Shown piece after piece: positions 3,128-21,613 of a stretch of DNA of 32,269 bases (the first letter of the stretch is position 1; every line of letters begins with the position of its first letter). Below the pieces are notes generated by a model. That model had not been told where the DNA came from and made no database searches. It worked only from the letters and a program-made list of their open reading frames with translations. The DNA is from Thermoanaerobaculia bacterium (lineage in GTDB: Bacteria; Acidobacteriota; Thermoanaerobaculia; Multivoradales; UBA5704): contig DATNKQ010000484.1 in NCBI GenBank assembly GCA_035603315.1, positions 1-32,269 on the forward strand, read 5' to 3'. A program made the position numbers and the translations under genes.

Positions 3128-3242
3128 GCGGGGCGGAAAACTTCCTGCCCGCCGCCGCGTAGAGAGCCTCTGCGCTAGACTAGCGCGTCGCGTCCGACCG
3201 CCGATCCGGCTCGAGGCCAACGCTCGTTCGAGGTGCCGCTCG

Positions 3243-7401: not shown

Positions 7402-7540
7402 GCTCCTCCTGCCCATGCGGCTTGGCTTCCGCGGGTTTGTAAGAAGTACACGATCTCGGGCGGCCGTCTTCTCGACCGTCCGGAGACGGCTCCCGCTCCT
7501 TGCAGCGGTCGTGCCGTGGTCGGAGCGGGCATTCCGGCCA

Positions 7541-7556
7541 TGGCATACGACGTGCA
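7541..7556 (+). promoter_or_regulatory. Candidate sigma-54 (-24/-12) promoter for the kinase/activator pair
   Basis: TGGCATacgacGTGCA has GG and GC at the canonical 12-nt register, with two departures from TGGCAC-N5-TTGCA. It lies about 30 nt upstream of GGAGG (7573-7577) and ATG 7585. Confidence 0.4.
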
Positions 7557-7584
7557 CCGGGGAGGCGAGTCTGGAGGTCAAGCG

Positions 7585-8643
7585 ATGGTTGAAACGACGG
7601 ATGGGGAAGCGGAGGCTCACCCCGCGGCCGCGGAGCTGGAGCTGGCCGCGGCGCTCACGCCCGGCGTGCTGGTGCTCGAGGAGAGCGGCAGGGTGCTCTC
7701 CGCTGACGAGCAGGCCCTGCGCCTTCTGGAGGCCCAGGACTTGGGCGAGCTTGCGAGCCGGGGCGAGGAGATGCGATCGCTCCTCGCAGCCGCCACGGCG
7801 ACGACGGAGGGCCGGCCGTCGCTCGTGCCTACCGGCAGCGGTGGGCGGCAGCTGCTCTGCCAGTGGAGCCGCGGGGAGCGAGCCGGCGTCCGGATCCTGC
7901 TCGTGAGCGATCCGGAAGCTGCGCGCTCCCTGGCCGCCGACCTCCGGCTGGCCGCCCACCTGCGCGCGCTCTCCCAGATCTCCCCCGCGGTGGCGCACGA
8001 CCTGCGGGCGCCGATCAACGCCATGGTGTTCAACATCGAGATCCTCAAGGAGACGATCGCCGCCGGCAAGGCGATGGAACCGGCCGCGCGCGAGCGCCAG
8101 CTGCGCTACGTGGGGGTCCTGAAGGACGAGCTCGCCCGCCTCCACCAGGCGCTGGAGATCTTCCTCGCCCAGACCTCGGCGCGGGGCGACCGAACCGAGA
8201 CGCTGGACCTGCGAGAGGCGGTCGGGGAGCTCTCCGCCCTGCTGGTGCCGCCGGCGAGGAAGCTCCAGGTTCAGATCGCCTCCGCCCTGCCCGAACAGTC
8301 CGTCCCGGTCGCCGCGAACCGCTACTCGCTGCGCCAGGCGCTCCTCCAGGTGGGCCTGGCGGCCCTCCCCGGGGTGGCGCGCGGGGGCACTCTCGAAGTC
8401 CGGCTGGAGAGCCGTAACGGACGTGCCCTCCTGGCGATCGGCAGCTCGAACGGCGCGGAAAGAGCGCCCTCCCCGAGCTTCGACCTCCCAGTTGCCGGCG
8501 CCTACGATCCCTTGCGGCTGCAAAACGCCCGCGCGATCCTCGTGGAGCAGGGATGCGCGCTGCGGACCGCCCAAGGCGCCGGCGGCTTTGAGGTAGAATG
8601 GCCGGTCTCGGGAAAGGACGTACCGGTTTCGGGAAAGGATTGA
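7585..8643 (+). CDS. Cytoplasmic PAS-like + DHp sensor histidine kinase-like protein with a degenerate ATP-binding (CA) domain
   Basis: H-box SPAVAHDLRAPINAM, with the His codon at 7996-7998. PAS-like N-terminus (GVLVLEESGRVLSADEQALRLL). No TM segment. The start was chosen at ATG 7585 (GGAGG 7 nt upstream); the track start is GTG 7516. No N, G1 or G2 box is recognisable (see findings). Confidence 0.75.
   Translation: MVETTDGEAEAHPAAAELELAAALTPGVLVLEESGRVLSADEQALRLLEAQDLGELASRGEEMRSLLAAATATTEGRPSLVPTGSGGRQLLCQWSRGERAGVRILLVSDPEAARSLAADLRLAAHLRALSQISPAVAHDLRAPINAMVFNIEILKETIAAGKAMEPAARERQLRYVGVLKDELARLHQALEIFLAQTSARGDRTETLDLREAVGELSALLVPPARKLQVQIASALPEQSVPVAANRYSLRQALLQVGLAALPGVARGGTLEVRLESRNGRALLAIGSSNGAERAPSPSFDLPVAGAYDPLRLQNARAILVEQGCALRTAQGAGGFEVEWPVSGKDVPVSGKD
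8602..8643 (+). repeat. Imperfect 21-bp tandem duplication (x2) at the 3' end of the kinase gene
   Basis: ccggtctcgggaaaggacgta / ccggtttcgggaaaggattga match at 17 of 21 positions. They encode PVSGKDV-PVSGKD-stop. Confidence 0.8.
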
Positions 8644-8646
8644 GGA

Positions 8647-9984
8647 ATGCCCCACGCACTCGCGGTCGACGACGATCCCAACTTCCTTTCCGCGCTCGCC
8701 GAACTCATCGAGGGGCAGGGATTCACCACCAATACCGCGAGCACCCTGCGGGACGCCCGCACCCAGGTCAGCCACAAAACGCCCGACGTAGCGCTGGTGG
8801 ACCTCTATTTGCCGGACGGCAGCGGCATCGACCTGCTCAAGGACCTCGAGCTCGGCACCGCGACCGAGGTGGTGCTGATGACCGGCCATGCGGACGTCGA
8901 GAGCGCCGTCCAAGCCCTCCGCCTGGGCGCCAGCGACTACCTGACGAAGCCGCTCGACATCGGTCGCCTGAAGAGCATCCTGGCCAACGTGGCGAGCGTC
9001 CAACCGGGGCTGCCGATCGGCGGGCCGGCGCCGGAAGAGACCAAGGAGCAGGGCCGTCTCGGGCTCCTCCTGGGCGCCTCTCCTCCCATGCAGTCCCTCT
9101 ACGACATGCTCATTCGCGTCGCCCCCACCGACGCCACCGTCTTCCTGGTCGGCGAGAGCGGGACCGGCAAGGACCTGGCGGCCCAGACTCTCCATCACCT
9201 CAGCCGCCGCAGCAAGGGACCGTTCCTGCCGCTCAACTGCGGCGCCATCTCGCCCACTCTCATCGAAAGCGAGATGTTCGGCCACGAGCGCGGGAGCTTC
9301 ACCGGCGCCGCGCGGCGCCACAAGGGTTACTTCGAGCGCGCCCATGGCGGCACTCTCTTTCTCGACGAGATCAGCGAGATGCCGATCGAGCTGCAGGTCA
9401 AGCTCCTGCGGGTGCTGGAGACGGGAACCGTCTCCCGCATCGGCGGCGATCAGCCGGTGGAGGTCGACGTCCGGGTGTTCGCCGCCACCAACCGCGACCC
9501 TCAGAAGGCAGTCGAGGAGGGCAAGCTGCGGGAGGACCTCCTCTACCGTCTGCAGGTGTTTCCCGTCCTGATGCCGGCCCTGCGCGAGCGCGGCGCCGAC
9601 ATCGAGCTCCTGGCCGGCGCCTTCCTGGACCAGCTCAACGAGCGCCAGGGAACCGCCAAGCGTTTCACCGACGAGGCCATGGACCGCCTGCGCAGCCATT
9701 CGTGGCCGGGCAACGTCCGCGAGCTCAAGAACGTCGTGCACCGGGGCTTCATCATGGCCGAGCTGGAGATCTGCCCGCGCTGCCTGCCGCGAGAGGTGGG
9801 CGGCGACGCCGGAGGGCTCCGCAGCCTGCACTTCCAGGTGGGGACGTCGATCGCCGAGGTGGAGCGCCGGCTCATCACCGCCACCCTGGAGCTCCACGGC
9901 GGCAACAAGCGGAAGACCGCCGACATCCTGGGCGTCAGCCTGAAGACGCTCTACAATCGGCTCAACACCTACCGCGAGGAGTAG
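8647..9984 (+). CDS. Sigma-54-dependent response regulator / enhancer-binding protein (NtrC family)
   Basis: REC domain (AVDDDPNF, VALVDLYLPDGSG, TGH). AAA+ domain with Walker A GESGTGKD, sigma-54 contact loop GSFTGA, and FLDEI. C-terminal Fis-type HTH (GNKRKTADILGVSLKTLYNRL). Confidence 0.93.
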   Translation: MPHALAVDDDPNFLSALAELIEGQGFTTNTASTLRDARTQVSHKTPDVALVDLYLPDGSGIDLLKDLELGTATEVVLMTGHADVESAVQALRLGASDYLTKPLDIGRLKSILANVASVQPGLPIGGPAPEETKEQGRLGLLLGASPPMQSLYDMLIRVAPTDATVFLVGESGTGKDLAAQTLHHLSRRSKGPFLPLNCGAISPTLIESEMFGHERGSFTGAARRHKGYFERAHGGTLFLDEISEMPIELQVKLLRVLETGTVSRIGGDQPVEVDVRVFAATNRDPQKAVEEGKLREDLLYRLQVFPVLMPALRERGADIELLAGAFLDQLNERQGTAKRFTDEAMDRLRSHSWPGNVRELKNVVHRGFIMAELEICPRCLPREVGGDAGGLRSLHFQVGTSIAEVERRLITATLELHGGNKRKTADILGVSLKTLYNRLNTYREE

Positions 9985-10103
9985 GGGACCAAACGCTGGA
10001 ACCGCTCACGACGGCTCCCCCTTGAGGAGCCGGCAAGGAGGTTGTATACTCCCCTCCCGTCCGACGACTCAGTCCGACCTGGCATCTGTTTCCAAGGGGA
10101 TTG

Positions 10104-10119
10104 TGGCACAGAAACTGCT
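10104..10119 (+). promoter_or_regulatory. Sigma-54 (-24/-12) promoter upstream of the BON-domain gene
   Basis: TGGCACagaaaCTGCT has GG (10105-10106) and GC (10117-10118) in the canonical 12-nt register. It is intergenic, correctly oriented, about 85 nt upstream of ATG 10205, and directly downstream of the sigma-54 activator gene. Confidence 0.7.
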
Positions 10120-10204
10120 TTCGAACATTTCTGTACGACGAGCGCAGCCGCGCCACAACCCCGCATGTTGACATACAGGTTCGACCGCGGAGGAGGATAG
10201 AGAC

Positions 10205-10540
10205 ATGAACCACGACCCTTCATCGCAGCGCGTCCCGGTGGTCATTCTGGCGCTGGCGGCCCTCGTCGGGCTCCTGGTGGTGACGTCTGCCTGCCGGTCG
10301 ACGGTGCCCGCCGGGGTGCAGCTCAAGGACAGCGAGATCACCGCCAAGGTGAAAGCCAAGCTGGCCACCGACGGCGACATCAATCCCTTCAACATCGACG
10401 TCGATACCAACGAGGGCGTCGTGACGCTTCAGGGGCGGGTGGCGAAGGAAGAGGCCCGGACGAAGGCCGAGGATCATGCTCGTCACACCGAGGGCGTGAA
10501 GAGAGTTATAGACTTGATCAAGGTAGGCGACCGGACGTAG
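10205..10540 (+). CDS. BON-domain (OsmY-like) envelope protein, probable lipoprotein/secreted
   Basis: GGAGGAGGA lies before the ATG. Signal segment VVILALAALVGLLVVTSAC. BON pattern ITAKVKAKLATDGDINPFNIDVDTNEGVVTLQGRV...GVKRVIDLIKV. Confidence 0.85.
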   Translation: MNHDPSSQRVPVVILALAALVGLLVVTSACRSTVPAGVQLKDSEITAKVKAKLATDGDINPFNIDVDTNEGVVTLQGRVAKEEARTKAEDHARHTEGVKRVIDLIKVGDRT

Positions 10541-10594
10541 GCCGACCGCCGAAATCATCCTTTCATTCAGTCAATTCACAAGGGAGAAAGACAA

Positions 10595-10849
10595 ATGAAG
10601 AAGGCACTCATCCACCTGTCCATGCTCTGCCTGCTGGCCTTCCTGCTGATGCCGCTCGCCGGCTGCAACAAGAAGGAGGAGAACATGGAGGTCGAGGAGC
10701 AGAGCTCCGCGACCACCGAGACCACGAGCACGACCACCGAGATGACCAGCACGACGACCGAGATGGGCACCTCGATGGGCACCGATTCGGGCATGGGCAT
10801 GGGTACCGAGACGGGCACGCAGGGCACCCAGCCGCCCCCGGCTCACTAA
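10595..10849 (+). CDS. Small lipoprotein with a Thr/Ser/Met/Gly-rich low-complexity mature region
   Basis: GGGAG lies upstream of the ATG. Signal peptide with lipobox LMPLAGC. The mature region is about 60 aa (TTETTSTTTEMTSTTTEMGTSMGTDSGMGMGTETGT...PPPAH). A terminator follows directly. No homolog is recognisable by eye. Confidence 0.6.
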   Translation: MKKALIHLSMLCLLAFLLMPLAGCNKKEENMEVEEQSSATTETTSTTTEMTSTTTEMGTSMGTDSGMGMGTETGTQGTQPPPAH

Positions 10850-10886
10850 AGACGCTCGCAGGTCCAGCTCCGTTGGCAGATGCACG

Positions 10887-10916
10887 GGCGCTCGTGGTGC
10901 GAGCGCCTTTTTCTTC
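10887..10916 (+). terminator. Rho-independent terminator after the BON/lipoprotein pair
   Basis: GGCGCTCG (10887-10894), 5-nt loop tggtg, CGAGCGCC (10900-10907), then TTTTTCTTCT. Confidence 0.7.
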
Positions 10917-10945
10917 TCCCCAGCCTGGATCTCCGATCGGCGTTC

Positions 10946-11638
10946 CTAGGGGCGGGCTGGCGCCCGCCCCGGACCGTCCACCTGTTCCAGGAACTCTCCG
11001 GCCGCGCGGCGGAACTCGTCCGTCCATTCGTGTCCCCCCTCGTAGGCGACGGGACGAACGTCGATCCCCTGGCGCCGCAGAGCGTCGATGTCGGCGGCCA
11101 TTTTGGCCTCGTCGAACCACTCCTCGCGATTGCCGCGGCCCAAGAGAACGGGCGGGAAGCCGCTCAAGCTCCCGGCCGCGAGTTCCGGCGGGAGGTCGCC
11201 GCCGAGGACGATCACGCCCTGGCACGGATGGCCGCTGCGGGCAGCGGCGCGATAGGCCATCGCCGCTCCCTGCGAGAAGCCGGCATAGATCAGGCGCTCC
11301 GCGGCGCCCGTCTCGCGCTTCACCTCGGCGACGACGGAGGCGACGTAGCGGATGTTGTCCGCGATCGCCCGCTCGCGGTCCAGCTTGGTCATCCAGCTGG
11401 CGACGACCTCGTTCGCCCGGCTGTAGAACGGATGGAGCGCTTGCACCGCGCAGAGCAGCCAGCGGGAGGCGCCGGGGATGCGGCGGAGCTCGTCCAGATG
11501 CCGCTCCGCGCTCTCCCCGTAGCCATGGAAGCCCACCAACAACCGCGGTGCGCCGGCGATCGACGGCAGCCGCTCCAGGAGATAGGTGCCATGGACGAGG
11601 GCCGCGATGTGTCGAGTCTCTTTTCCGCCTTCCGCCAT
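10946..11638 (-). CDS. Alpha/beta hydrolase, phospholipase/carboxylesterase-type
   Basis: Nucleophile elbow GFSQGAAMA (GxSxG). FHGYGES near the N-terminus. A C-terminal GGHEW supplies the likely catalytic His. Confidence 0.8.
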   Translation of the reverse strand: MAEGGKETRHIAALVHGTYLLERLPSIAGAPRLLVGFHGYGESAERHLDELRRIPGASRWLLCAVQALHPFYSRANEVVASWMTKLDRERAIADNIRYVASVVAEVKRETGAAERLIYAGFSQGAAMAYRAAARSGHPCQGVIVLGGDLPPELAAGSLSGFPPVLLGRGNREEWFDEAKMAADIDALRRQGIDVRPVAYEGGHEWTDEFRRAAGEFLEQVDGPGRAPARP

Positions 11639-11654
11639 GTTCCTTGTCCTTTCT

Positions 11655-12401
11655 TCAGATCGCGTACTGCGCCAGGAGGATGCAGACGAATCCGGCGACG
11701 AAGCTCCACGCGGTGCCGTGCTTGCCGGAGGCTTCCAGGCTCTCCGGCAGCAGCTCGGCGAGCACGAGGTAGGTCATGGCGCCGGCGGCGAAGCCCAGCC
11801 CGTACGGCAGCAGGGGGCGGCTGATCGACAGCAGCAGGACCGCGGGGACGACGGCGATCGGCTGCGGCAGCGACGAGAGGACCGAGTAGCCGAAGCAGCG
11901 CCAGAAGCCGACCCCTTCCGCCGCCAGCGGCAGGCTGATGGCGAGCCCCTCGGGAATGTTGTGGATGCCGATGGCGATGGCGATGAACACTCCCATGCCC
12001 ACCTTCCCCGAGGCGTAGCCGACGCCGACCGCGACTCCTTCCGGGAAGCTGTGCACGAACATGGTGCCGAGGATGAGGAGCGCCCGGCGTCCGCCGGCGC
12101 CCTGGAGCCCGGCGACGGTCCACTGCTTGTCCTCGAGGTAGCGGTCGCCGAGCCAGAAGAAGCAGGCGCCGGCCAAGAACCCCGCCGCCAGCTGCCACGG
12201 CCGCCTGGTCTCCAGACCCGGCAGCACGAGGTCGAAGAAGGAGACCGACACCATCATCCCGCCGGCGAGGGCGTAGCCGCTGCCGATCACGGAAGCCGGC
12301 AACCGCGCGGTGAAGAGCACCGGCAGGGCGCCCAGGCCGGTCGCCAGCATGGTGAGCACGGCGGCCACCAGGGCCTGGACGAGGATGGAGTCCCAGGCCA
12401 A
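11655..12401 (-). CDS. ZIP family divalent metal (zinc) transporter
   Basis: Signature motifs HSFPEGVAVG and HNIPEGLAIS in a polytopic protein. The TTG start lies 18 nt after the trpA stop. The start is uncertain. Confidence 0.85.
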   Translation of the reverse strand: MAWDSILVQALVAAVLTMLATGLGALPVLFTARLPASVIGSGYALAGGMMVSVSFFDLVLPGLETRRPWQLAAGFLAGACFFWLGDRYLEDKQWTVAGLQGAGGRRALLILGTMFVHSFPEGVAVGVGYASGKVGMGVFIAIAIGIHNIPEGLAISLPLAAEGVGFWRCFGYSVLSSLPQPIAVVPAVLLLSISRPLLPYGLGFAAGAMTYLVLAELLPESLEASGKHGTAWSFVAGFVCILLAQYAI

Positions 12402-12419
12402 GCCTTTAGCGTCCCGTCA

Positions 12420-13241
12420 CTAGGCCCGCCGCCGCTCGGCCCGCCGGCGCAGCGGCGCCGCCAGCTCGCGCACCCGTTCCTCCACTGCCGCCGCGAGGTC
12501 GGGCTTGCCTCCGTGCTCCTCGACCAGGCGGACGAGCGCGCTGCCGACGACGACGGCGTCGGCCATCTCTCCCACCGCCGCCACCTGGGCCGGCGACGAG
12601 ATGCCGAAGCCGACCGCCAGCGGCAGGTCGAGCCGGCGACGCAGCCGCTTGATCTCGCGGGCGAGCTCCGCCGGCAGCTCGTCTCGCTCGCCGGTGACGC
12701 CGGTGCGCGAGACGTAGTAGACGAAACCGCTGGCGGCCGCGGCCACCCGGTTGATCCGCTCGCGGGTGCTGGTGGGGGCCAGGAGATAGATGGCGTCGAC
12801 GCCCTGGCGGCGGAGGGCCGGGACGAGGCACCGCTCCCCCTCCTCCGGCGGCAGGTCGACGCAGAGGACTCCGTCGACGCCGGAGGCGGCGGCCTGCTCG
12901 GCGAAACGCTCCACGCCGCGGGCGAGGAGGGGGTTGAAGTAGGTGAAGAGCACGATCGGCACCCCCAGGCGGTCGCGGTGGCGGGCGACCAGCTGCAGGA
13001 TGCCCGAGAGCTTGGTGCCCGCCGCCAGAGCGCGGGTGGCGGCGCGCTGGTTGACCGGCCCGTCGGCGATCGGATCGGAGAACGGCACTCCCAGCTCGAT
13101 GACGTCGGCGCCGCCGGCGGCGAGCGCCTCGACGAGGTCGGCGGTGGCGTCGAGGCTGGGGTCGCCGGCCATGAGGAAGGGGATGAAAGCCGTCCTCCCC
13201 TCCTCGCCGCAGCGAAGGAAGACCTCGTCGATGGCGCTCAT
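12420..13241 (-). CDS. trpA: Tryptophan synthase alpha chain
   Basis: [18 protein letters not shown] and GFGIS motifs. The ATG at 13241 is preceded by GGGAGGGAGG. ATGA overlap with the trpB stop. Confidence 0.93.
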
Positions 13242-14512
13242 CGCCTCCCTCCCTGCGAGAGCCGCAGGACGGCGGCCGGGCTCTCGTCGCGAGCGGCTTG
13301 CCCGCCGCCCGTGGCGGCCTGGTCGTAGGCGAGAACCGACTCGACGTCCTTGTCGCCGCGGCCGGAGAGGTTGACGAGGACGATCCGCTTGCGCGACAGC
13401 CGGGGGGCGCGCTTGACCACCTCGGCGATGGCGTGGGCGCTTTCCAGGGCGGGCAGGATCCCCTCGATGCGCGCGAGCAGGTGGAAGGCGGCGATCGCCT
13501 CGGCGTCGGTGGCGGAGGAGTACTCGACCCGGCCTTCGTCGTGGAGAAGCACGTGCTCGGGGCCGATGGCCGGGTAATCGAGGCCGGCGGAGATCGAATG
13601 GGTGGCGGCGATCTGCCCCTCGATGTCCTGCAGCACCATCGTGCGGGTGCCGTGGAGGACCCCCAGCGAGCCGCCGGCGAAGCGGGCGGCGTGCGCCCCG
13701 AGCGCCGTCCCCCGCCCGCCTGCCTCGACGCCGATCAAGCGCACCCGGGAGTCGCCCAGGAAGGCGGTGAAGAGGCCGATCGAGTTGCTGCCGCCGCCGA
13801 CGCAGGCGACCGCGAGGTCGGGGGCGTCGACCTTGGCCTGCCGGCGCAGCTGCAGCTTGGCCTCGTCGCCGATGACGCGGTGGAAGTCGCGCACCATGCG
13901 GGGGTAGGGATCGGGACCGAGCACCGAGCCCAGCACGTAGTGGGTGGTGCGGACGTTGGTGACCCAGTCGCGCAGCGCCTCGTTGATGGCGTCCTTCAAG
14001 GTGCAGCTGCCGGCGTCGACCGCCACCACCTCCGCGCCGAGCAGGCGCATGCGGTCGACGTTCAGGCGCTGGCGCCGCATGTCCTCGCTGCCCATGTAGA
14101 CGGTGCAGGAGAGGCCGAGCGAAGCGGCGGCGGTGGCGGTCGCCACCCCGTGCTGGCCGGCTCCGGTCTCGGCGATCACCCGCCGCTTCCCCATGGCCTC
14201 CGCCAGCAGGCACTGGCCGACGGCGTTGTTGATCTTGTGAGCGCCGGTGTGCAGCAGGTCCTCGCGCTTGAGGTAGATGCGGGCGCCGCCGAGCTCGGCG
14301 CTCAGGCGGGCGGCGAAGAAAAGCGGTGTCGGGCGGCCGGCGAAGTCGCGCAGCACCCCTTCCAGCCGGCGCCGGAAGCCGCGCTGGCGGCGCGCCTTGT
14401 CATAGGCGCGGGAGAGCTCGGCGAGCGGCGCCATCAGGGTCTCGGGAACGAAGCGACCGCCGTAGAGACCGAAATAGCCCGCCGGGTCAGGACGGGGGCG
14501 TGCCTTGGCCAT
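13238..14512 (-). CDS. trpB: Tryptophan synthase beta chain
   Basis: [14 protein letters not shown]-terminus, PLP-lysine motif HTGAHKINN, and GGGSNSIG. Confidence 0.95.
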
Positions 14513-15119
14513 TCCTCACCTCCGCGAAAAGCCGTTCCAGGAGCTCGCGGTCCTTGATGCCGGGAGACGACTCCACGCTCGAGCATACGTCAAGCGCGTG
14601 CGCTCCGCTTTCCTCCATCGCCCGGCGGACGTTGCCGGGGTTGACGCCGCCGGCGAGGAAGACCCGCCGCGCGGCGCAGATCGCCGCCACCGACCCGTAG
14701 GGCCAAGAAACCCCGGTGCCGCCGTAGAGCGATCCATGGCGGACGTCGAAGAGCAGCGCCCAGGCCCGCGAGTAGGGCGCCAGGGCCTCCGGGCCCGGAT
14801 CCCCGCCGGTGCGGAAGGCCTTGATCGCCCGCGCCGCGAAGGGGCCGACCTCGGCCGGCCCCTCGTCGCCGCTGAACTGCAGGAGATCGAGCCCCACCTC
14901 CGCCGCCACCTCCTCGACCTCGGCCGGCGGGCGGTCCACGAAGACTCCCACCAGAGGGACCTTGCCGGCGGCGGCCGCCGCGATCTCGCGCGCCTGGCCG
15001 AGGGCGACGCAACGCGGGCTCCGGGGATAGAAGTTCAATCCCAGGTAGGAGGCGCCGAGCTCGATGGCCAGGAGAGCGTCCGCGGGGCGGGTGACGCCGC
15101 AGATCTTGACCCCCGTCAT
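14487..15119 (-). CDS. trpF: Phosphoribosylanthranilate isomerase
   Basis: [11 protein letters not shown]-terminus, LQFSGDE, and [14 protein letters not shown] overlap with the trpC stop. The 3' end overlaps the trpB start by 26 nt. Confidence 0.9.
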
Positions 15120-15907
15120 CCCGCCAGCTCCTGGAGCTTGGCCCCGGGGTCGGCGGCGAGCAGCAGCGACTCGCCGACCAAGAAGGCGTCGAAACCGCCC
15201 TCCCGCAGCCGGTCGACGGCGGCGCGGCCGTCGATGCCGCTCTCGGCGACCTTGAGAGCTGCGGGCGGCAGCTCGGACAGGAGGGCGATCGAGTGCCCGA
15301 GATCCACCTCGAAGGTGCGAAGATCCCGGTTGTTGACCCCCACGAGCTCCCAGGTCCCGCCGGCGAGCTTCGCGAGGTCGTCCCGGCCGTGGACCTCGAT
15401 CAGGGGGACGAGGCCGAGCCCGCGGGCGAGGCCCGCGTAGCGCGCCATCTCGGCCGCGTCGAAGAGCGCGGCGATCAGCAGCACGGCGTCCGCCCCCGCC
15501 TCCCGCGCCCACCGCAGCTGCACCGGGTCGACGACGAAGTCCTTGGCGATCGCCGGCAGGCCGGAGGCCCGCCGGCAGGCGGCGAGCAGCTCATAGCCGC
15601 CGTGGAAGAAATCGGGCTCGACGACGACCGACAGGGCCGCCGCGCCGTTCGCCGCGTACTGCTCCGCCTGCTTGATCGGATCCACCCTCCCGGCGAGCGA
15701 GCCCAGCCGCGGCGAGCCCATCTTGACCTCGGCGATGACCGCCCGGCCTCGCCGCCGCTCGAGGGCGGCGAGGAATGCGTTGTCCGCCGCGGACAAGGGC
15801 TCGCCGGCCGCCAGGGCCGTTGATACCGCCAGGCCATCGCCCGTTATCCGCTCGCGCCGCCTCTCGGCGATGCGCCGCAGGATGTCGGTCGCGCCGCTTC
15901 CGATCAC
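15116..15907 (-). CDS. trpC: Indole-3-glycerol-phosphate synthase
   Basis: IAEVKMGSP, IAKDFVVDP, LIEVH, VGVNNRDL and ESG motifs. The GTG start at 15907 forms a GTGA overlap with the trpD stop. Confidence 0.9.
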   Translation of the reverse strand: MIGSGATDILRRIAERRRERITGDGLAVSTALAAGEPLSAADNAFLAALERRRGRAVIAEVKMGSPRLGSLAGRVDPIKQAEQYAANGAAALSVVVEPDFFHGGYELLAACRRASGLPAIAKDFVVDPVQLRWAREAGADAVLLIAALFDAAEMARYAGLARGLGLVPLIEVHGRDDLAKLAGGTWELVGVNNRDLRTFEVDLGHSIALLSELPPAALKVAESGIDGRAAVDRLREGGFDAFLVGESLLLAADPGAKLQELAG

Positions 15908-16929
15908 GGAGAGAAGCTCCGCAGCTCTTCGAGCTTGGCCGCCGCGGCCCCCGCGGCCAGCACCTCGCGGGCCCGCTCGACGCCTTCCGCCAGCCCCGGC
16001 TCCAGGCCCCCCACGTAGAGGGCGGCTCCGGCGTTGAAGGCGGTGACGTCCGCCAGCGGGCCGCGCTCGCCGGCGAGCACCCGGCGCATCGCCGCGGCGT
16101 TCTCCTCCGGCCCGCCGCCGGCCAGGTCGCTCAGGGTGGCTCGGGCGAAGCCGAAGCTCTCCGGCTCCAGGGTGTAGCTGCGGACCTCGCCGTCCAGCAC
16201 CTCGCTGACCCGGGTCGGACCGGTGGTGGTGATCTCGTCCAGCCCGTCGGCACCGTGGACCACCATGGCGTGCTCGGTCCCGAGGTCGGCCAGCACGCGG
16301 GCCACCAGCGGCACCAGATCCGGCGCGTACACCCCCAGGAGCTGGCGGCTGGCGCCGGCGGGATTGGTCAGCGGCCCCAGCAGGTTGAAGATGGTGCGCA
16401 CCCCGAGCTCGCGGCGCACCGGCATCACCTCCCGCATCGCCGGATGGAGGAGGGGCGCGAAGAGGAAGGCGATGCCGATGCCGTCGAGGGCGCGGCCGGC
16501 GGTCGCCGCGTCGGTCTCGATCTTCACCCCCAGGGCCGCCAGCACGTCGGCGCTCCCCGAGCGGCTGGAGACCGAGCGGTTGCCGTGCTTGGCGACGGCG
16601 AGCCCTGCCGCCGCGGCGACGAGGGCCGCCGCGGTCGAGATGTTGAAGGTGCCGCACCCGTCGCCGCCGGTGCCGCAGGTGTCGAGGACGCGGGGACGGG
16701 AGTGGGGGATGGGCACGACCCGCCGGCGCATGGCGACGGCGGCGCCGCAGATCTCCGCGGCCGCCTCCCCCTTCATGCGCAGCGCCACCAGGAGCGCGGC
16801 CTTGAGCGGCTCGCTCAGCTCGCCGTCCATCAGCCGGCCGAAGAGCTCCTCGGTCTCCTGGCGGGAGAGGTCCTGGCCGGCGGTCAGGCGGGAGAGCGCC
16901 TGGCGGGCGTCGATCGTCCCCGCCGTCAT
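15904..16929 (-). CDS. trpD: Anthranilate phosphoribosyltransferase
   Basis: DTCGTGGDG, AKHGNRSVSS and NLLGPLTNP motifs. ATGA overlap with the trpG stop. Confidence 0.93.
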   Translation of the reverse strand: MTAGTIDARQALSRLTAGQDLSRQETEELFGRLMDGELSEPLKAALLVALRMKGEAAAEICGAAVAMRRRVVPIPHSRPRVLDTCGTGGDGCGTFNISTAAALVAAAAGLAVAKHGNRSVSSRSGSADVLAALGVKIETDAATAGRALDGIGIAFLFAPLLHPAMREVMPVRRELGVRTIFNLLGPLTNPAGASRQLLGVYAPDLVPLVARVLADLGTEHAMVVHGADGLDEITTTGPTRVSEVLDGEVRSYTLEPESFGFARATLSDLAGGGPEENAAAMRRVLAGERGPLADVTAFNAGAALYVGGLEPGLAEGVERAREVLAAGAAAAKLEELRSFSP

Positions 16930-17573
16930 GACCGCGCGGCCTTGGCGGCCCGCACCGGTCGAGCGACGGGCGCCGCCGTCTCCTCTCGCCTCGCGGCGCC
17001 GGAGCGGGCGCAGAGGTCGAGGAAGTTGCCGAGGAGACGCGGCCCGGCGTCGGTGAGCACCGACTCGGGATGGAACTGCACTCCCCAGTAGGGGAGCTGG
17101 CGGTGGCGGAGGCCCATGAGCGTCCCGTCGTCGTCGCTCCAGGCGAGCGGCTCGAGCTCGGCGGGAAGCGTTTCCTCGCGCACCGCCAGGCTGTGGTAGC
17201 GGGTGGCCTCGAAAGGATCGGGAAGGCCGGAGAAGAGGCCAGCGCCGCCATGCCGGATGGGCGAGGTCTTGCCGTGCATCAGGCGGGGCGCCCGCTCGAC
17301 CACCGCCCCGAAGGCCACCCCCAGGGCCTGATGACCGAGGCAGACGCCGAGGAGCGGCACCGCGGCGCGGCGCTGGATGAGCTCGACGCACACCCCCGCC
17401 GCCTCGGGGCGTCCGGGGCCCGGCGAGAGGACGATGCCGGCGGGCTGCCGTGCCAGTAGGGCGGACGGCGAAGCTGCGTCGTTGCGGACCACCTCGACCT
17501 GCGTCCCCGCCGCCGCCAGCATCTGCACCAGGTTCCAGGTGAACGAGTCGTAGTTGTCGATCATCAGGATCAC
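16926..17573 (-). CDS. trpG: Anthranilate synthase component II (glutamine amidotransferase)
   Basis: ILMIDNYDSFTWNL, catalytic GVCLGHQ, and VQFHPES. The GTG start forms a GTGA overlap with the trpE stop. Confidence 0.93.
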   Translation of the reverse strand: MILMIDNYDSFTWNLVQMLAAAGTQVEVVRNDAASPSALLARQPAGIVLSPGPGRPEAAGVCVELIQRRAAVPLLGVCLGHQALGVAFGAVVERAPRLMHGKTSPIRHGGAGLFSGLPDPFEATRYHSLAVREETLPAELEPLAWSDDDGTLMGLRHRQLPYWGVQFHPESVLTDAGPRLLGNFLDLCARSGAARREETAAPVARPVRAAKAARS

Positions 17574-19069
17574 GACGATTCCTCCTCGCCGCCGCCGGCT
17601 GGCTTCTGCCCCGCTCCGCTCCTCCGCGGGCGCCGCCCCTCCAGCCGCTCGGCGAGCGCCACCGCGGCCAGGAGTGCCGCCGCCTTATTCTCGGTCTCCC
17701 GCTCCTCGGCGGCGGGATCGGAGTCGGCGACGATGCCGGCGCCGGCGGTCACCGAGGTCTCGCCGCCCCGAACGACCAGCGTGCGGATGGTGATGCAGGT
17801 GTCGATGTCGCCCGAGTAGGAGAGGTATCCCACGGCGCCGGCATAGGGTCCTCGCGCCTCCGGCTCCAGGGCGTCGATGATCTCCATGGCGCGGATCTTG
17901 GGCGCGCCGGAGACCGTGCCGGCGGGGAAGCAGGCGAGGAGAGCGTCCAGGGCGTCGCCTCCATCGAGCTCCGCCTCGACGCTCGATACCAGGTGCATGA
18001 CGTGGCTGTAGCGCTCCACCTGGAGGAAGGTCGGCACGCGAACGCTGCCGGCGACTGCCACCTTGCCGAGGTCGTTCCTCCCCAGGTCGACGAGCATGAC
18101 GTGCTCGGCCCGCTCCTTGGGATCGGCGAGCAGGTCGGCGGCGAGCAGGCCGTCCCCCTCGTCGTCGGCGCCGCGCGGCCGGGTGCCGGCGATCGGGCGA
18201 GTCTCCAGCCGGCGGCCGGTCTTGCGCACCAGCATCTCGGGCGATGCCCCCACCAGGGCCGCCTCGGGCGCCTCGAGGAGGACCATGTAAGGGCTGGGGT
18301 TGACCATGCGGAGCGCCCGGTAGAGCGCCAGCGGCTCCACCCGCTGGGGCACCTTCCACCGCCGGGCGAGCACGACCTGAAAAATGTCGCCGGCGGCGAT
18401 GTGCTCCTTGGCCGTCAGCACGGCCCGCCGGAAAGCCGGCCCGTCGAGGCTGGGCGGCGGCGCCGGCAGCGCCCGCGCGGGTCCCGCCGGCATCGCCACC
18501 GCGCCGCCCGGCTCTCCCTCCGTGAGCAGGCGCGACAGCCGCGCCAGCTCGCGCTCGGCGGCGGCGGCGACGACGTCTCCCTCGATCTCGTTGGCGACGG
18601 CCAGCACCCGCTGGCGGGCATGGTCGAAGATCACCAGGGTGTCGAAGCGGGCGAGGAGGGCGATCGGCAGGCCGAAGGGGTCGGGAGGCCGCGAGGGAAG
18701 GTGTTCCACCAGACGCGCCAGGTCGTAGCCGAAGTAGCCGACGAGGCCGCCGGTGAAGGGAATGGGACCGGGCTCGGCCACGACGGCGCCGATCACCCGC
18801 CGCAGGGCGTCGAGCGCCGGCCCCGGCAGCCGCTTGCGCCGCCCGTCGCGCTCGACCTCCAGGTGGTCCTCGTAGAGGCGGTAGATCTCCCGCGGGCCGG
18901 CGCCCAGGAAGCTGAAGCGCGAGACCCGCTCGCCTCCTGCCACGCTCTCCAAGAGGAAGCGGGTCGGCGAGACGCTCGCCAGCCGCCGATAGACGCCGAG
19001 CGGAGTCAGGCTGTCGGCCAGGAACTCGCGGATGTGAGGCACCGCGCGGCGGGGAGTCGGAGCGGTCAT
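17570..19069 (-). CDS. trpE: Anthranilate synthase component I
   Basis: RFLLESV, SPYMVLL, GTVSGAPK and GAGIVADSDP motifs. The ATG at 19069 forms an ATGA overlap with the aroDE stop. This CDS is the C-terminal part of the track ORF 17570..20650. Confidence 0.93.
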   Translation of the reverse strand: MTAPTPRRAVPHIREFLADSLTPLGVYRRLASVSPTRFLLESVAGGERVSRFSFLGAGPREIYRLYEDHLEVERDGRRKRLPGPALDALRRVIGAVVAEPGPIPFTGGLVGYFGYDLARLVEHLPSRPPDPFGLPIALLARFDTLVIFDHARQRVLAVANEIEGDVVAAAAERELARLSRLLTEGEPGGAVAMPAGPARALPAPPPSLDGPAFRRAVLTAKEHIAAGDIFQVVLARRWKVPQRVEPLALYRALRMVNPSPYMVLLEAPEAALVGASPEMLVRKTGRRLETRPIAGTRPRGADDEGDGLLAADLLADPKERAEHVMLVDLGRNDLGKVAVAGSVRVPTFLQVERYSHVMHLVSSVEAELDGGDALDALLACFPAGTVSGAPKIRAMEIIDALEPEARGPYAGAVGYLSYSGDIDTCITIRTLVVRGGETSVTAGAGIVADSDPAAEERETENKAAALLAAVALAERLEGRRPRRSGAGQKPAGGGEEESS

Positions 19070-20616
19070 CTCGCCGGCGCCATCCTTGCGGCCGGCGCCG
19101 GCAGACCGAGGAGCTCGCGGGCGAGATCGCGCGGCATCTCGCGCCCCGTCATGCGGCGGAACTGGCCCAGCGCCTGGTCGAGGAGCACCTCGCGGCCGTC
19201 GATCGCAACCGCGCCTTGCGCCGCCGCCGCCGCGAGGAGCCGGGTCGGCGGCGGGAGCTCCGCCTCGCCGCCGGCGTCGTCCACCCCGCCGTCCAGCGGA
19301 TACACGAGGTCGATGACCACCGCCCCGGGCGCCAGGCAGTCGACGGCGAAGGGAAGCGGGTCGTCGGGCTCGCGCCCCAGGGGGGTGGCGTTGACCAGCA
19401 GCTCGAAGCCGGCGGGGTCGACGTCGGCGAGCGGCAGGAAGGGCAGGTGGAGATCGGCGGCGGCGCGCTCGCCGGCTTCCGCGCTGCGGTTGGCCAGGGT
19501 CACCCGCGCGCCGCTGGTCGCCAGGCCGACCGCCGCCGAGCGCCCGGCGCCGCCGGCGCCGACCACCAGCGCGCGCTTGCCCCGCGGGTCGATGCCGCGC
19601 TCCGCCAGCGGCAGCACCACCCCTTCGGGATCGGTCGATTCGGCCTCCCACACGCCGGCGTTCCAGACCAGGGTGTTGGCGGCGCCTATGCGACCGGCGA
19701 GCGGGCTCTCGGCGCCGGCCACGGCCAGCGCCGCAGCCTTCCAGGGCGCCGTCACCGAAAGACCGCGGATCGGCATCCCGAGCGCCTCTAGCACGCCCCC
19801 CTCGACCACCTCCAGCCAGAAATCGCCGAAGGCGGCGGTGTGGAAGGGGAGGTAGAGGGCGGGTATGCCGAGCGCCCGGTAGGCGCCGTTGTGGAGGCGC
19901 GGCGACAGCGAGTGCGCGACCGGGTTGCCGACGATGCCGAAGAGCTTCTCGACCGGCGGCAGGTCGGGGAGGCCGTAGTCGCGCTGCAGTCGGCGGAGCG
20001 AAATCTGCCCCGGCGCCCCAGCCACCCGGCCCACGGCGCCGTAGACGACGGGCGCCCCCAGGCGCGGAGCGATGAGGCGGGTCCAGGCGCCGGAAAGGCC
20101 GGAGGCGAAGGCGGCGACGTCGGCCCGCTGGAGCGCCTGGAGCAGCAGGAGAGGGGCGAGCTCCTCGCCCGGCTGCACTGCGGCGGGAACCAGCTTGTAG
20201 AGCAAGGCCTCGGCCGCCAGCATGCGGTTGAAGCGCGACTGCAGGCCCGCTAGCCCCGGCGCCGCGCCGTGCCAGGAGACGATGCGGCGCTCCGGCGCCA
20301 CCGCCTGGAGCAGCTCGGGGGCGAGGTCCCGCTCGCTTTCGAGGTCGACGAGGTCGTAGCGGGAGGCGGCCTCGAGGAGCCGCCGGCGCCGGCGATCGGC
20401 CGAGCTCTCGAAGGCACCCCCCTCGCCCCGGCTGCGCAGGGTGTAGAGGAGCTTGCCCGGGAAGCGGGCGCGGAGCGGCGCGGGATCGAGGTCCCCCGTC
20501 AGGTCGGCGCGCACCTCCAGCCAGTCCGCTCCCGTCAGCGGTCCGAGGCCGGCCGCGGAGGGAGCCGTGGTGAGGGTGGCGACCAGGGTCGCCTTCCTGG
20601 CTTCGCTCAAAAGCAA
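19066..20616 (-). CDS. aroDE: Bifunctional type I 3-dehydroquinate dehydratase / shikimate 5-dehydrogenase (AroD-AroE fusion)
   Basis: The N-terminal half has type I DHQase landmarks (WLEVRADL, RSRGEGG, VSWHG, LYKLV with the putative Schiff-base Lys, APGQIS). The C-terminal half is AroE-like (GIVGNPVAHSLSP, LSVTAPWK, Rossmann VVGAGGAGR, NATPLG). Only TTG starts are available (20616 or 20610), and 20610 has the better spacing to AAGGAG. Confidence 0.85.
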   Translation of the reverse strand: MLLSEARKATLVATLTTAPSAAGLGPLTGADWLEVRADLTGDLDPAPLRARFPGKLLYTLRSRGEGGAFESSADRRRRRLLEAASRYDLVDLESERDLAPELLQAVAPERRIVSWHGAAPGLAGLQSRFNRMLAAEALLYKLVPAAVQPGEELAPLLLLQALQRADVAAFASGLSGAWTRLIAPRLGAPVVYGAVGRVAGAPGQISLRRLQRDYGLPDLPPVEKLFGIVGNPVAHSLSPRLHNGAYRALGIPALYLPFHTAAFGDFWLEVVEGGVLEALGMPIRGLSVTAPWKAAALAVAGAESPLAGRIGAANTLVWNAGVWEAESTDPEGVVLPLAERGIDPRGKRALVVGAGGAGRSAAVGLATSGARVTLANRSAEAGERAAADLHLPFLPLADVDPAGFELLVNATPLGREPDDPLPFAVDCLAPGAVVIDLVYPLDGGVDDAGGEAELPPPTRLLAAAAAQGAVAIDGREVLLDQALGQFRRMTGREMPRDLARELLGLPAPAARMAPAR

Positions 20617-20643
20617 AAGCTCCTTCCGGACCCGGAAGGAGCT
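20609..20643 (-). terminator. Intrinsic terminator (attenuator) in the 5' leader of aroDE-trpEGDCFBA
   Basis: Minus strand: AGCTCCTTCCG (20643-20633), loop GGTC, CGGAAGGAGCT (20628-20618), then TTTTGCTTTTG. This gives an 11-bp perfect stem. No upstream minus-strand gene exists for it to terminate. Confidence 0.75.
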
Positions 20644-20700
20644 GGCTCACGGTGCTGGCGGATAGCTCGTCCCGGGTCGCGGCCGGGACGCCGCCCGGCC
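20631..20700 (-). promoter_or_regulatory. Overlapping alternative helices (anti-antiterminator and antiterminator) of the trp attenuator
   Basis: H0: GGCCGGG 20700-20694 / CCCGGCC 20687-20681. H1: CGTCCCGG 20690-20683 / CCGGGACG 20675-20668. H2: CCCGGGACGAGCT 20676-20664 / AGCTCCTTCCGGG 20643-20631, with 12 of 13 positions paired including one G-U. Each helix shares bases with the next. Confidence 0.6.
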
Positions 20701-20771
20701 TAGATCGCCTGAAGGTGAGCGCACCACTGCCAGCTCAGGGAATCGAAGCGGCGGCGGTGCGGTGCGTTCAT
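20700..20771 (-). CDS. trp operon leader peptide (trpL-like), 23 aa, with two Trp codons
   Basis: Hand translation of the minus strand gives ATG(20771) MNAPHRRRFDSLSWQWCAHLQAI TAG(20702-20700). The TGG codons are at 20732-20730 and 20726-20724. AAAGGG lies 8 nt upstream of the ATG. The ORF is too short to appear in the track. Confidence 0.7.
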   Translation of the reverse strand: MNAPHRRRFDSLSWQWCAHLQAI

Positions 20772-20794
20772 CGTCGGGACCCTTTGGCCGGTCG

Positions 20795-20823
20795 ATTACA
20801 GCAGGGCGACCGAAGCCTGTCAA
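20795..20823 (-). promoter_or_regulatory. Near-consensus sigma-70 promoter for the trp leader/operon
   Basis: Minus strand: TTGACA (20823-20818), a 17-nt spacer, then TGTAAT (20800-20795). The -10 element ends 23 nt upstream of the leader ATG. Confidence 0.65.
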
Positions 20824-20878
20824 GACGATCCTGCTACGCTTACCGAGCGCCGGCGCGCCGCGCCGGACGAGCGGGCAG

Positions 20879-21613
20879 ATGCGAATCGCCATCGTCTCCG
20901 ATATTCACGGGAATCTCACGGCCTTGGAAGCGGTCGTAGCCGATCTTCGGCGCCGGGCCCCCGACCTCATTCTCCAGGGTGGCGACCTCGCGGCGAGCGG
21001 GGCGCGCCCTGCCGAAGTCGTCGATCGCATTCGGGAGCTCGGCTGGGCGGGAGTTTGCGGCAACACCGATGAGATGCTGTGGGCCCCCGAGCGCCTGTCG
21101 GATCTCGCGCGAAAGCACCCTCAACAGCAAGGGCTCTGGCGAGTCGTCCAGGAGATTGCGGCCCGCACTCGCGAGTGGCTGGGCGAGGAGCGGATCAACT
21201 GGCTGCAAAGCATCCCCCGCGAGGTCCGCCGCCATCCGGTCGCTCTCGTCCACGCGAGCCCCGGCGATCTTTGGGTGGCGCCATCGTTCGAAGCCAGCGA
21301 TGCGGAGCTCGGCGCGGCCTACCGCTCGCTGGCGGCGCCCGTCGTCGCCTACGGTCATATCCACCGGCCCTTCGTCCGGAAGGTCGGCTCGCAAATCGTC
21401 GCCAACACCGGCAGCGTGAGCCTCTCGCACGATTCCGACCCGCGAGCGTCGTATCTCCTCATCGACGACCTCGAGGTCACCGTTCAGCGCGTCGAGTACG
21501 ACGTCGAGCGCGAGGCGGCGGCGCTTCTCGACTCGGGCCTGCCGCAAGCGGAATGGCTGTGCGCATTGCTGCGAGCGGCTCAACCCCTCCCACTGCCAGA
21601 GCCGAGCGACTGA
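20879..21613 (+). CDS. Metallophosphoesterase (calcineurin-like, YfcE/MJ0936-type)
   Basis: Ordered motifs VSDIHGN, QGGDL, CGNTDE, LVHASP and YGHIHRP. The start was set at ATG 20879 (MRIAIVSDIHGN) rather than track start 20762, which would run through the trp promoter/leader. Confidence 0.88.
   Translation: MRIAIVSDIHGNLTALEAVVADLRRRAPDLILQGGDLAASGARPAEVVDRIRELGWAGVCGNTDEMLWAPERLSDLARKHPQQQGLWRVVQEIAARTREWLGEERINWLQSIPREVRRHPVALVHASPGDLWVAPSFEASDAELGAAYRSLAAPVVAYGHIHRPFVRKVGSQIVANTGSVSLSHDSDPRASYLLIDDLEVTVQRVEYDVEREAAALLDSGLPQAEWLCALLRAAQPLPLPEPSD

Follow-up and report, generated by a model that had tools for sequence, protein, structure and literature searches.

The window analysed here, meaning the whole 32,269-nucleotide (nt) stretch of contig DATNKQ010000484.1 from a Thermoanaerobaculia bacterium, carries on its minus strand, directly ahead of an aroDE-trpEGDCFBA operon whose first gene is an aroD-aroE fusion, a leader that is most likely a functional ribosome-mediated (leader-peptide) tryptophan (Trp) attenuator. 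A first-pass annotation made from the letters alone had proposed this reading, and it was supported by the conservation of the elements in related loci, by a consensus structure obtained with RNAalifold, by helix pairing that exceeded that of slid partners, and by the near-equal energies of two alternative states. Expression of the operon would be set by the supply of charged tRNA-Trp through five segments, A to E, each pairing only with its neighbours (A:B, H0; B:C, H1; C:D, H2; D:E, H3), and we consider this specific relay order the probable one.

The leader and its alternative helices

Read on the minus strand, the promoter hexamers, the AAAGGG motif, the 23-codon open reading frame (ORF) and its Trp codons lie exactly where the first-pass annotation had placed them, as do the four overlapping helices, of which H2 pairs at 12 of 13 positions with one G-U. 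The elements are as follows.

20818 to 20823, minus strand: -35 hexamer TTGACA, read in the sequence, of predicted promoter activity
20795 to 20800, minus strand: -10-like hexamer TGTAAT, 17 nt past the -35 hexamer, read in the sequence
20780 to 20785, minus strand: purine-rich leader ribosome-binding motif AAAGGG, 8 nt 5' of the ATG
20702 to 20782, minus strand: P0, a long imperfect hairpin in the minimum-free-energy fold
20700 to 20771, minus strand: leader ORF (trpL-like), MNAPHRRRFDSLSWQWCAHLQAI-TAG, 23 codons and a stop, read in the sequence
20724 to 20732, minus strand: putative regulatory Trp codons (W14, W16) in TGG-CAG-TGG, with TGG at 20732-20730 and 20726-20724
20681 to 20700, minus strand: H0 (A:B), GGCCGGG 20700-20694 / CCCGGCC 20687-20681, -15.5 kcal/mol
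20668 to 20690, minus strand: H1 (B:C), CGTCCCGG 20690-20683 / CCGGGACG 20675-20668, -15.3 kcal/mol
20631 to 20676, minus strand: H2 (C:D), predicted antiterminator, CCCGGGACGAGCT 20676-20664 / AGCTCCTTCCGGG 20643-20631, -22.7 kcal/mol
20618 to 20643, minus strand: H3 (D:E), predicted terminator and sequestering hairpin, AGCTCCTTCCG / loop GGTC / CGGAAGGAGCT, arms 20643-20633 / 20628-20618, -20.4 kcal/mol
20620 to 20627, minus strand: aroDE Shine-Dalgarno GGAAGGAG, within the 3' arm of H3, read in the sequence
20608 to 20617, minus strand: U-rich tract TTTGCTTTTG, ending in TTG 20610-20608, the aroDE start codon

Transcription would start near 20788. The ORF, which is missing from public gene calls, has a start codon and a putative ribosome-binding site of its own, lies between the predicted promoter and the first gene, and is conserved in relatives. 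Its second Trp codon (W16) is 7 codons ahead of the stop, and Trp accounts for 2 of the 23 leader codons, compared with 0.53% of codons in the operon's own genes. A lone 23-codon ORF with two Trp codons is not decisive without family conservation.

The 5' arm of H0 opens on the last base of the leader stop codon, and H2 and H3 share 20643-20631. In the window, H1 has a specific extension (GGCGG 20695-20691 / CCGCC 20661-20657) with which its energy is -23.4 kcal/mol, and folding lengthened H2 by the pairs G20678-C20629 and A20677-U20630. Constrained global folds gave -48.5 kcal/mol for H0+H2 and -51.6 kcal/mol for H1+H3, a gap of about 3 kcal/mol; since these energies are nearly equal, the two states are expected to compete. 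Energetically competitive alternative folds, which the first-pass annotation had expected, were thus found, with antiterminator and terminator helices that are mutually exclusive and of comparable stability.

At the other end of the leader, P0 pairs the leader ribosome-binding site, the AUG and the early codons (20782-20744) with the Trp codons and the tail of the ORF (20738-20702). Pairing of the AUG with the ORF tail was seen in the minimum-energy folds of 37 of 49 family members, compared with 21% when the body of the ORF was shuffled, and the folding energy of the leader-ORF region was unexceptional for G+C-rich RNA (mean z = -0.59 against shuffles). Judging by these folds, P0 would probably limit translation of the leader to an early time window.

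Two further pairings were considered and set aside. The complementarity between the Trp-codon segment 20736-20721 and 20655-20639, to which the first-pass annotation had drawn attention, exists in the window (z = -2.2) and is not conserved: in 49 members, RNAduplex compared with dinucleotide shuffles gave a mean z of +0.24, with 2 of 49 below -1.64, and the pairing was therefore treated as incidental rather than as a feature of the family. Sequestration of A in the untranslated RNA by CGGCC 20790-20786, at the 5' end of the transcript, was rejected because the pairing is found in the window only and its bases may precede the transcription start.

Conservation, codon content and covariation in the leader family

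Scanning one genome per species with the AroDE protein gave 24 loci at 46-75% identity, nearly all in metagenome-assembled genomes titled Thermoanaerobaculia or Acidobacteriota, and the window's upstream architecture was present in 15 of these, or 15 of the 23 aroDE loci of related genomes. A pattern scan of metagenome contigs yielded 39 further true instances among chance hits, and the complete element set was kept in order and spacing in about 55 loci, at an AroDE identity to the window of 56-69%. The family ORF starts with ATG, runs for 20-35 codons and has 1-3 Trp codons placed 6-11 codons before the stop. Such an ORF with Trp at the expected place was found in 54 of 55 members, the rest of the peptide varying freely; the exception, locus L098 (L-numbers denote individual loci), has the Trp/histidine (His) frame and no ATG, which looks like the result of an indel. 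In the same locus, hisZ/hisG matches lie on both strands in mirror order (1584-3190 vs 5223-3682), which may reflect a palindromic misassembly with indels.

The signals around the ORF are conserved as well. TTGACA stands at the equivalent spot in 15 of 15 genome loci with the leader, as it does in L007 and L009, the -10 variants at the same spacing are TGTAAT, TCTAAT, TGTAAG, TGGAAT and TCGAAT, and TTGACA-N17-TnTAAT is kept in all leader-carrying relatives. The fixed 17-nt spacing, with a perfect TTGACA and a TnTAAT that lacks A at position 2, hints at a promoter preference of this lineage. The leader ribosome-binding motif of relatives is CGGGAA, CGGAAG or similar, 8-11 nt before the ATG. After the ORF the family order is GCCGGG (A, 0-7 nt past the stop), GUCCCGGC (B), CCCGGGACGAG (C), a variable spacer, CCUCCUUCCGG (D), a short loop, CCGGAAGGAGG (E), UUUU(C/G)GUUU and a TTG or ATG start; the Shine-Dalgarno of relatives is GGAAGGAGG or GGGAGGAGG, with the TTG/ATG start 7-10 nt on.

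In L001, L009, L018 and L022, aroDE stands alone, with neither trp or his genes after it nor a leader before it, and L001 is the closest AroDE relative (75% identity). The presence of the leader appears to accompany the joining of aroDE to a trp or his operon. This distribution contradicts the view that the leader is a product of chance, in which a G+C-rich intergenic region would happen to hold an ORF and CCGG/CCCGGG repeats and only the last hairpin would be functional, as a ribosome-binding-site structure or a stabiliser of the mRNA 5' end. It is true that shuffled DNA of 72% G+C also folds strongly, with the leader-ORF region at the z of -0.59 given above and the stretch from stop to terminator (20612-20702) at z = -2.4 against shuffles, and that two TGG in 23 codons are not rare enough to decide the matter alone. 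With the full element set in about 55 loci at 56-69% AroDE identity, and its absence where aroDE is alone, we give a fortuitous origin practically no credence.

The strongest non-experimental evidence that the codons act as regulatory signals is that how many His codons a leader has depends on whether his genes follow it. Twelve leaders directly precede aroDE-trpE or trpE and 27 precede aroDE-hisZ-hisG or hisZ-hisG (with NCBIfam, hisG and hisA-hisF scored above cut-offs, and hisZ was the best hit with a score below its cut-off). The His-type loci are L002-L006, L008, L013-L015, L017, L029, L035, L039, L050, L052, L068, L078, L087 and L093, and further L098, L105, L106, L109, L111, L117 and L131, and their leaders lie about 100-200 nt upstream of aroDE or hisZ. 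All leaders retain Trp codons, whichever operon follows, and these are concentrated towards the end of the ORF. Within the final 13 codons, however, leaders followed by his genes have 3-4 His codons (25 distinct tails) and those followed by trp genes only have 0-2 (10 distinct tails), two ranges that do not overlap (Mann-Whitney p = 6.6e-7). The split persists inside a single cluster whose leaders share at least 80% similarity, and in which AWGWCAPHRSVS precedes aroDE-trpE and AWGWRAHHHSVS precedes aroDE-hisZG. With two Trp codons and one nearby His codon, the window leader would be the Trp-only version of the family.

His codons in the leaders are CAU rather than CAC in a ratio of 92:45, compared with 6:32 in the window's operon genes, a bias that may reflect P0 pairing with the leader AUG, sensitivity at a rare codon, or both. 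We considered whether the CAU codons are purely an RNA-level, AUG-pairing feature. This is partly true, given P0, the over-use of CAU and L043; it was rejected as the whole explanation because the His count splits the operon types even among close relatives that share the 5' region. In L043 itself, a 1-nt difference shifts the frame such that the conserved CAUCAUCA would be translated as Val-Ile-Ile-Thr rather than His-His-His, with the ORF running on to a TAG further down, which is either a sequencing error or conservation at the RNA level. We slightly favour the view that the relatives rich in His codons do sense both Trp and His.

Some loci combine the elements in other ways. In L068, a minus-oriented locus, the leader is near 381 and is followed by hisZ (507-1511), hisG (1646-2269), hisAF (7154-8779), hisIE (about 9000-9800), trpE (10152-11609) and trpG (from 11693), the trp genes being on the same strand as the his genes. 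No second leader or terminator was recognisable between hisIE and trpE, and the gap of about 350 nt before trpE is repetitive and rich in CCAGGCC/CGCCAG. Its gene order suggests a his-trp supraoperon headed by a Trp+His leader. In L033, two paralogous Trp-type leaders share one contig (2047-2109 and 6343-6404), one with the tail GWRGLIQNRMS before aroDE and one with the tail GWWRRSVHRVA before trpE. No recognisable leader was found between aroDE and trpE in L020.

Helix conservation was assessed on two alignments, A1, with 52 sequences of the stop-to-start region, and A2, with 15 genome-derived sequences, which is unbiased but small. On A1, 96.5% of cells were paired in H1+H3, 6 pairs had changed on both sides, and 0 of 500 shuffles reached the observed values; on A2, 97.2% were paired and the covariation score was 0.192 compared with 0.152 in the shuffles, 0 of 500 being as high. 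For H0+H2 the paired cells were 84.4% on A1 and 88.8% on A2, and both combinations paired far better than when the partner was slid by 1-3 columns. RNAalifold on A2 independently returned H1+H3 as the consensus. The alignment of orthologs that the first-pass annotation had called for therefore bore it out, with the short ORF and its Trp codons conserved and some compensatory changes in H0-H3.

The changes differ in kind from helix to helix. On A2, 98% of H1 cells pair, with U-A replaced by C-G in two members. For H3 the share of paired cells is 96%, and its lower stem holds compensatory changes. The 5' arm of H0 varies mainly from C to U, which preserves G-U pairs and so fits an RNA of the minus strand. 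H2 has the conserved core GACCCGGGA-c-GAG / CUC-c-UUCCGGGUC; of the window's GAGCU/AGCUC extension only GAG/CUC is common to the family, and the outermost H2 pairs of the window, C20665-G20642 and U20664-A20643, are unpaired in 42 of 52 and 39 of 52 sequences. Covariation links a base of the terminator loop to the one 5' of CCCGGG in arm C (AU in 5, GC in 5 and GU in 3 on A2). In L012, L039 and L052, ACCCGG is changed to AUCCGG together with a change of CCGGGU to CCGGAU or CCGGAA (C-G to U-A), and in L067 and L081 a 1-nt deletion in C is matched by a 1-nt deletion in the loop. These joint changes of C arm and loop are the most telling for the antiterminator because the loop plays no part in the terminator itself.

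Proposed roles of ribosome position, termination and Shine-Dalgarno masking

We infer a folding order in which termination at the U-tract would respond to tryptophan. With Trp plentiful, a ribosome would trail the polymerase as far as the UAG and occupy A; B would then pair with C once C had been made, D would be left for E, and H3 and the U-tract would form, such that transcription would stop just ahead of the aroDE start codon. In any RNA that read through, the aroDE Shine-Dalgarno would be hidden in H3. With Trp scarce, the ribosome would stall at W14 or W16, A:B would form first, C would capture D and E would stay single-stranded; with E free, the polymerase would read through and the aroDE ribosome-binding site would be open.

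The relay logic, which the first-pass annotation had offered as plausible, fits the measured distances. The core of A begins 4 nt after the first base of the stop codon in the window and 3-10 nt after it in the family, and B begins 14 nt and 12-21 nt after it, respectively. In the window, the Trp codons precede A by 28-34 nt; for the last Trp codon of family members the distance is 21-44 nt, with L125, in which the last Trp is near the stop, as an outlier at 13 nt. In most His-type relatives the last His codon comes 15-19 nt before A and only just clears it. With literature values for the ribosome footprint, A would lie inside the mRNA channel of a terminating ribosome and B at or past its leading edge, so that a ribosome at the stop, and not one at the regulatory codons, would occlude the first segment.

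A terminator scanner independently recovered H3 as an 11-base-pair G+C-rich stem with a 4-nt loop and the tail TTTGCTTTTG, which has 7 U in the 10 nt after the stem. The U-tract reported at first pass is thus present, with the correction that the first T of the TTTTGCTTTTG given there is the last base of the stem. The tract is kept in the family as TTTT(C/G)GTTT(T), in spite of a genome of about 72% G+C. In sequence form the site is an intrinsic terminator, unusual in that the aroDE start codon, 9 nt after GGAAGGAG, falls within the U-tract. Throughout the family, too, the Shine-Dalgarno is contained in the 3' arm of this hairpin. Because the 3' arm of H3 is the aroDE Shine-Dalgarno, H3 is both terminator-like and sequestering, and as in translational attenuators the Shine-Dalgarno appears to lie in a helix that depends on ribosome position. 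Control of aroDE would most likely be exerted both transcriptionally, by termination at the U-tract, and translationally, by masking of the Shine-Dalgarno.

Folds were also computed with a ribosome mask, as the first-pass annotation had advised. With A masked as by a ribosome at the stop, H1 formed once C had been made and H1+H3 at full length, and with a ribosome held at the Trp codons H0+H2 was preferred for as long as the RNA reached no further than D; thermodynamics alone, however, cannot confirm the switch. Several points indeed weigh against the attenuator reading. Before E is transcribed, H2 is favoured in both ribosome states, and at full length H1+H3 is favoured in both. Since equilibrium folding does not discriminate between the ribosome states, the switch must be kinetic, and the model rests on an assumed co-transcriptional order; H1 would form before D exists and would then have to be displaced. 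The untranslated leader is predicted to fold as P0 + H0 + H2, that is, to be ON, which is the opposite of E. coli trp. A sigma-70 consensus scanner rejected the promoter because position 2 of TGTAAT is not the canonical A, and the promoter was retained solely on family conservation. In A1, 36 of the 52 sequences had come from a search pattern in which B, C and D are partly fixed, for which reason the pairing counts were repeated on A2, and on the whole most helix pairs are invariant and not covarying. The U-tract could also be the spacer between Shine-Dalgarno and start, in which case its conservation is explicable without termination. Finally, L007 (about 3910-4000) lacks the leader ORF and the A-C segments: its TTGACA promoter runs straight into the hairpin, the Shine-Dalgarno and a U-run that is shortened (TTTTCCGTCGG, with the tract reduced to TTTT then CCGTCGG), and yet the whole precedes aroDE-trpEGD. 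A hairpin without the switch implies that the hairpin need not be a strong terminator.

The very strong conservation of the blocks and the small number of covarying positions are also what would be expected of a direct sensor resembling a riboswitch, a T-box or a TRAP site, for which GCCGGG, GUCCCGGC and CCCGGGACGAG would be the binding site and the ORF incidental. Their near-invariance has another explanation, because E is the Shine-Dalgarno, D complements E, C complements D, B complements C and A complements B, and this chain of complementarity anchored on the Shine-Dalgarno accounts for every conserved block. Conservation extends to the ORF, its ATG and its Trp codons, the remaining peptide being variable, and the tracking of his genes by His codons is unexplained by a ligand-binding RNA. 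In Rfam the whole window had no match at the gathering threshold, and relaxing the limit to E <= 10 for 20400-21000 brought only three noise hits (VA RNA, p27_CRE and snoR9); neither search matched Trp_leader (RF00513), the other curated leader families or T-box. We regard direct sensing as very improbable. The leader seems instead to be a new sequence family in a new phylum, outside the curated RNA families, with a textbook mechanism.

What L007 has is either an attenuator that has degenerated or a ribosome-binding-site hairpin that acts constitutively. Its leaderless hairpin is hard to square with a strong constitutive terminator, and would fit a form of translational attenuation in which H3 hides the aroDE Shine-Dalgarno, no termination takes place and control spreads by translational coupling. 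The position of GGAAGGAG in the 3' arm of H3, the TTG start within the U-tract, a U-rich stretch that might be conserved merely as a spacer, and 4-nt gene overlaps that would permit coupling are all in keeping with this. On the other side, H3 has the canonical form of an intrinsic terminator and is one of only two strong sites of this form in 32 kb, and the pattern T4-N2-T3/4 of the U-tract is kept across the family and reduced in L007. Translational control to the exclusion of termination therefore appears improbable to us, and as the two kinds of control are not exclusive, both are expected of the attenuator that we propose.

The putatively regulated operon in the window

Pfam gave the gene order downstream that had been claimed at first pass, an aroD-aroE fusion followed by trpE, G, D, C, F, B and A, with two genes appended to it.

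10946 to 20610, minus strand: putative regulated operon including the appended genes (Pfam and public gene calls)
20610 to 19066, minus strand: aroDE (aroD-aroE fusion; Pfam)
19069 to 17570, minus strand: trpE (Pfam)
17573 to 16926, minus strand: trpG (Pfam)
16929 to 15904, minus strand: trpD (Pfam)
15907 to 15116, minus strand: trpC (Pfam)
15119 to 14487, minus strand: trpF (Pfam)
14512 to 13238, minus strand: trpB (Pfam)
13241 to 12420, minus strand: trpA (Pfam)
12401 to 11655, minus strand: ZIP metal transporter, after an 18-nt gap from trpA (Pfam)
11638 to 10946, minus strand: Abhydrolase_2 gene (hydrolase), after a 16-nt gap from the ZIP transporter (Pfam)

In public gene calls on three soil-metagenome contigs with an identical protein, aroDE starts at TTG 20610 and is 514 amino acids long. 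Converted to window coordinates, these calls show that neighbouring genes from aroDE to trpA mostly overlap by 4 nt, with an overlap of 26 nt between trpF and trpB, a spacing that suggests co-transcription of the operon; the ZIP transporter and the Abhydrolase_2 gene may share the trp transcript. The window is about 72% G+C. Its sole other strong canonical terminator-like site, at 10886-10908 on the plus strand, consists of GGGCGCTCG-TGG-TGCGAGCGCC followed by TTTTTCTTCTC, and sits in a stretch of lower G+C (10000-11000, 63%). No second leader and no his operon were found within the window.

Significance and comparison with known systems

For an uncultured lineage of soil Acidobacteriota whose gene regulation we found described nowhere, these results provide a testable regulatory annotation of the trp operon, comprising promoter, leader peptide, switch and terminator. 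We lean, with limited assurance, towards seeing the window leader as the Trp-only member of an undescribed, re-programmable attenuator family of the Thermoanaerobaculia, whose Trp+His members would be dual sensors and whose control would be two-level and ON by default. If this is true, a five-segment relay anchored on the first gene's Shine-Dalgarno would be driven by codons that match the cargo of the operon, with Trp codons alone before aroDE-trp/trpE, and Trp together with 3-4 His codons before aroDE-hisZG and his(-trp) supraoperons. The family offers a natural experiment on attenuator design, the regulatory codons being swapped with operon content (trp vs his+aro) whereas the RNA relay hardly changes, since complementarity binds each of its arms to the Shine-Dalgarno. 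A compact synthetic part by which high-G+C hosts could be made to respond to amino acids is suggested as well. How attenuation itself is understood does not change.

The closest counterpart in design is the trp attenuator (trpL) of E. coli and Salmonella, which has two Trp codons late in a short ORF, four segments and three helices. Common to both are the alternative helices, a hairpin with a U-tract before the first gene, and the principle that the position of the ribosome decides. In contrast, the window leader has no sequence or structure homology to the E. coli element (RF00513), with no Rfam match even at E <= 10, and it has five segments and four helices. Its Trp codons are upstream of the switching helices, whereas those of E. 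coli are inside segment 1, and its terminating ribosome would exert its effect by blocking the first segment. For an untranslated leader, read-through is predicted here as opposed to termination in E. coli, and in the window the 3' arm of the terminator is the Shine-Dalgarno of the first gene.

In its number of helices the leader is closer to the his attenuator of Salmonella and E. coli, which works through the relay A:B, B:C, C:D, D:E, E:F and has 7 His codons in a row. In both, more than three mutually exclusive helices pass the position of the ribosome on to a distal terminator, and relatives of the window leader carry runs of His codons before his genes. These relatives have 3-4 His codons, not 7, however, and the window leader is Trp-only; with a number of segments of different parity, the default state is predicted to differ as well.

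Leaders that read more than one amino acid include those of thr (Thr+Ile) and ilvGMEDA (Ile+Leu+Val), and the aromatic supraoperon of B. subtilis links trp genes with hisC. Similarly, relatives of the window leader combine Trp and His codons before aro, his and, in L068, trp genes, a combination that belongs to the relatives and not to the window leader. We know of no description of a combined Trp+His leader, and in the library searched we found no paper on trp/his attenuation in Acidobacteria or on mixed Trp/His leaders. The final hairpin, which hides the Shine-Dalgarno of the regulated gene and would be opened by stalling in an upstream ORF, recalls translational attenuation of the ermC or cat type; here, in contrast, stalling would be caused by a shortage of charged tRNA and not by an antibiotic, and the hairpin is also like an intrinsic terminator.

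Among high-G+C bacteria, trp leader peptides are known in Actinobacteria, with Corynebacterium glutamicum and Streptomyces venezuelae cited in PMC4833913, and actinobacterial trp leaders have been analysed in PMC1262725; like the window leader, they were predicted by comparative genomics. They resemble the window leader as classical Trp-codon attenuators of high-G+C genomes upstream of trpE-type operons, and expression platforms that sequester a Shine-Dalgarno also occur in Actinobacteria (PMC1262725). The window leader differs from them in its phylum (Acidobacteriota), in having an aroD-aroE fusion as first gene, and in belonging to an unrelated sequence family. At the level of sequence, it has every testable defining feature of the classical attenuators, and what would set it apart from them is a five-segment relay anchored on the Shine-Dalgarno, a hairpin with the dual role of terminator and sequestering structure, the P0 hairpin over the leader start and, in its relatives, regulatory codons exchanged with the cargo of the operon.

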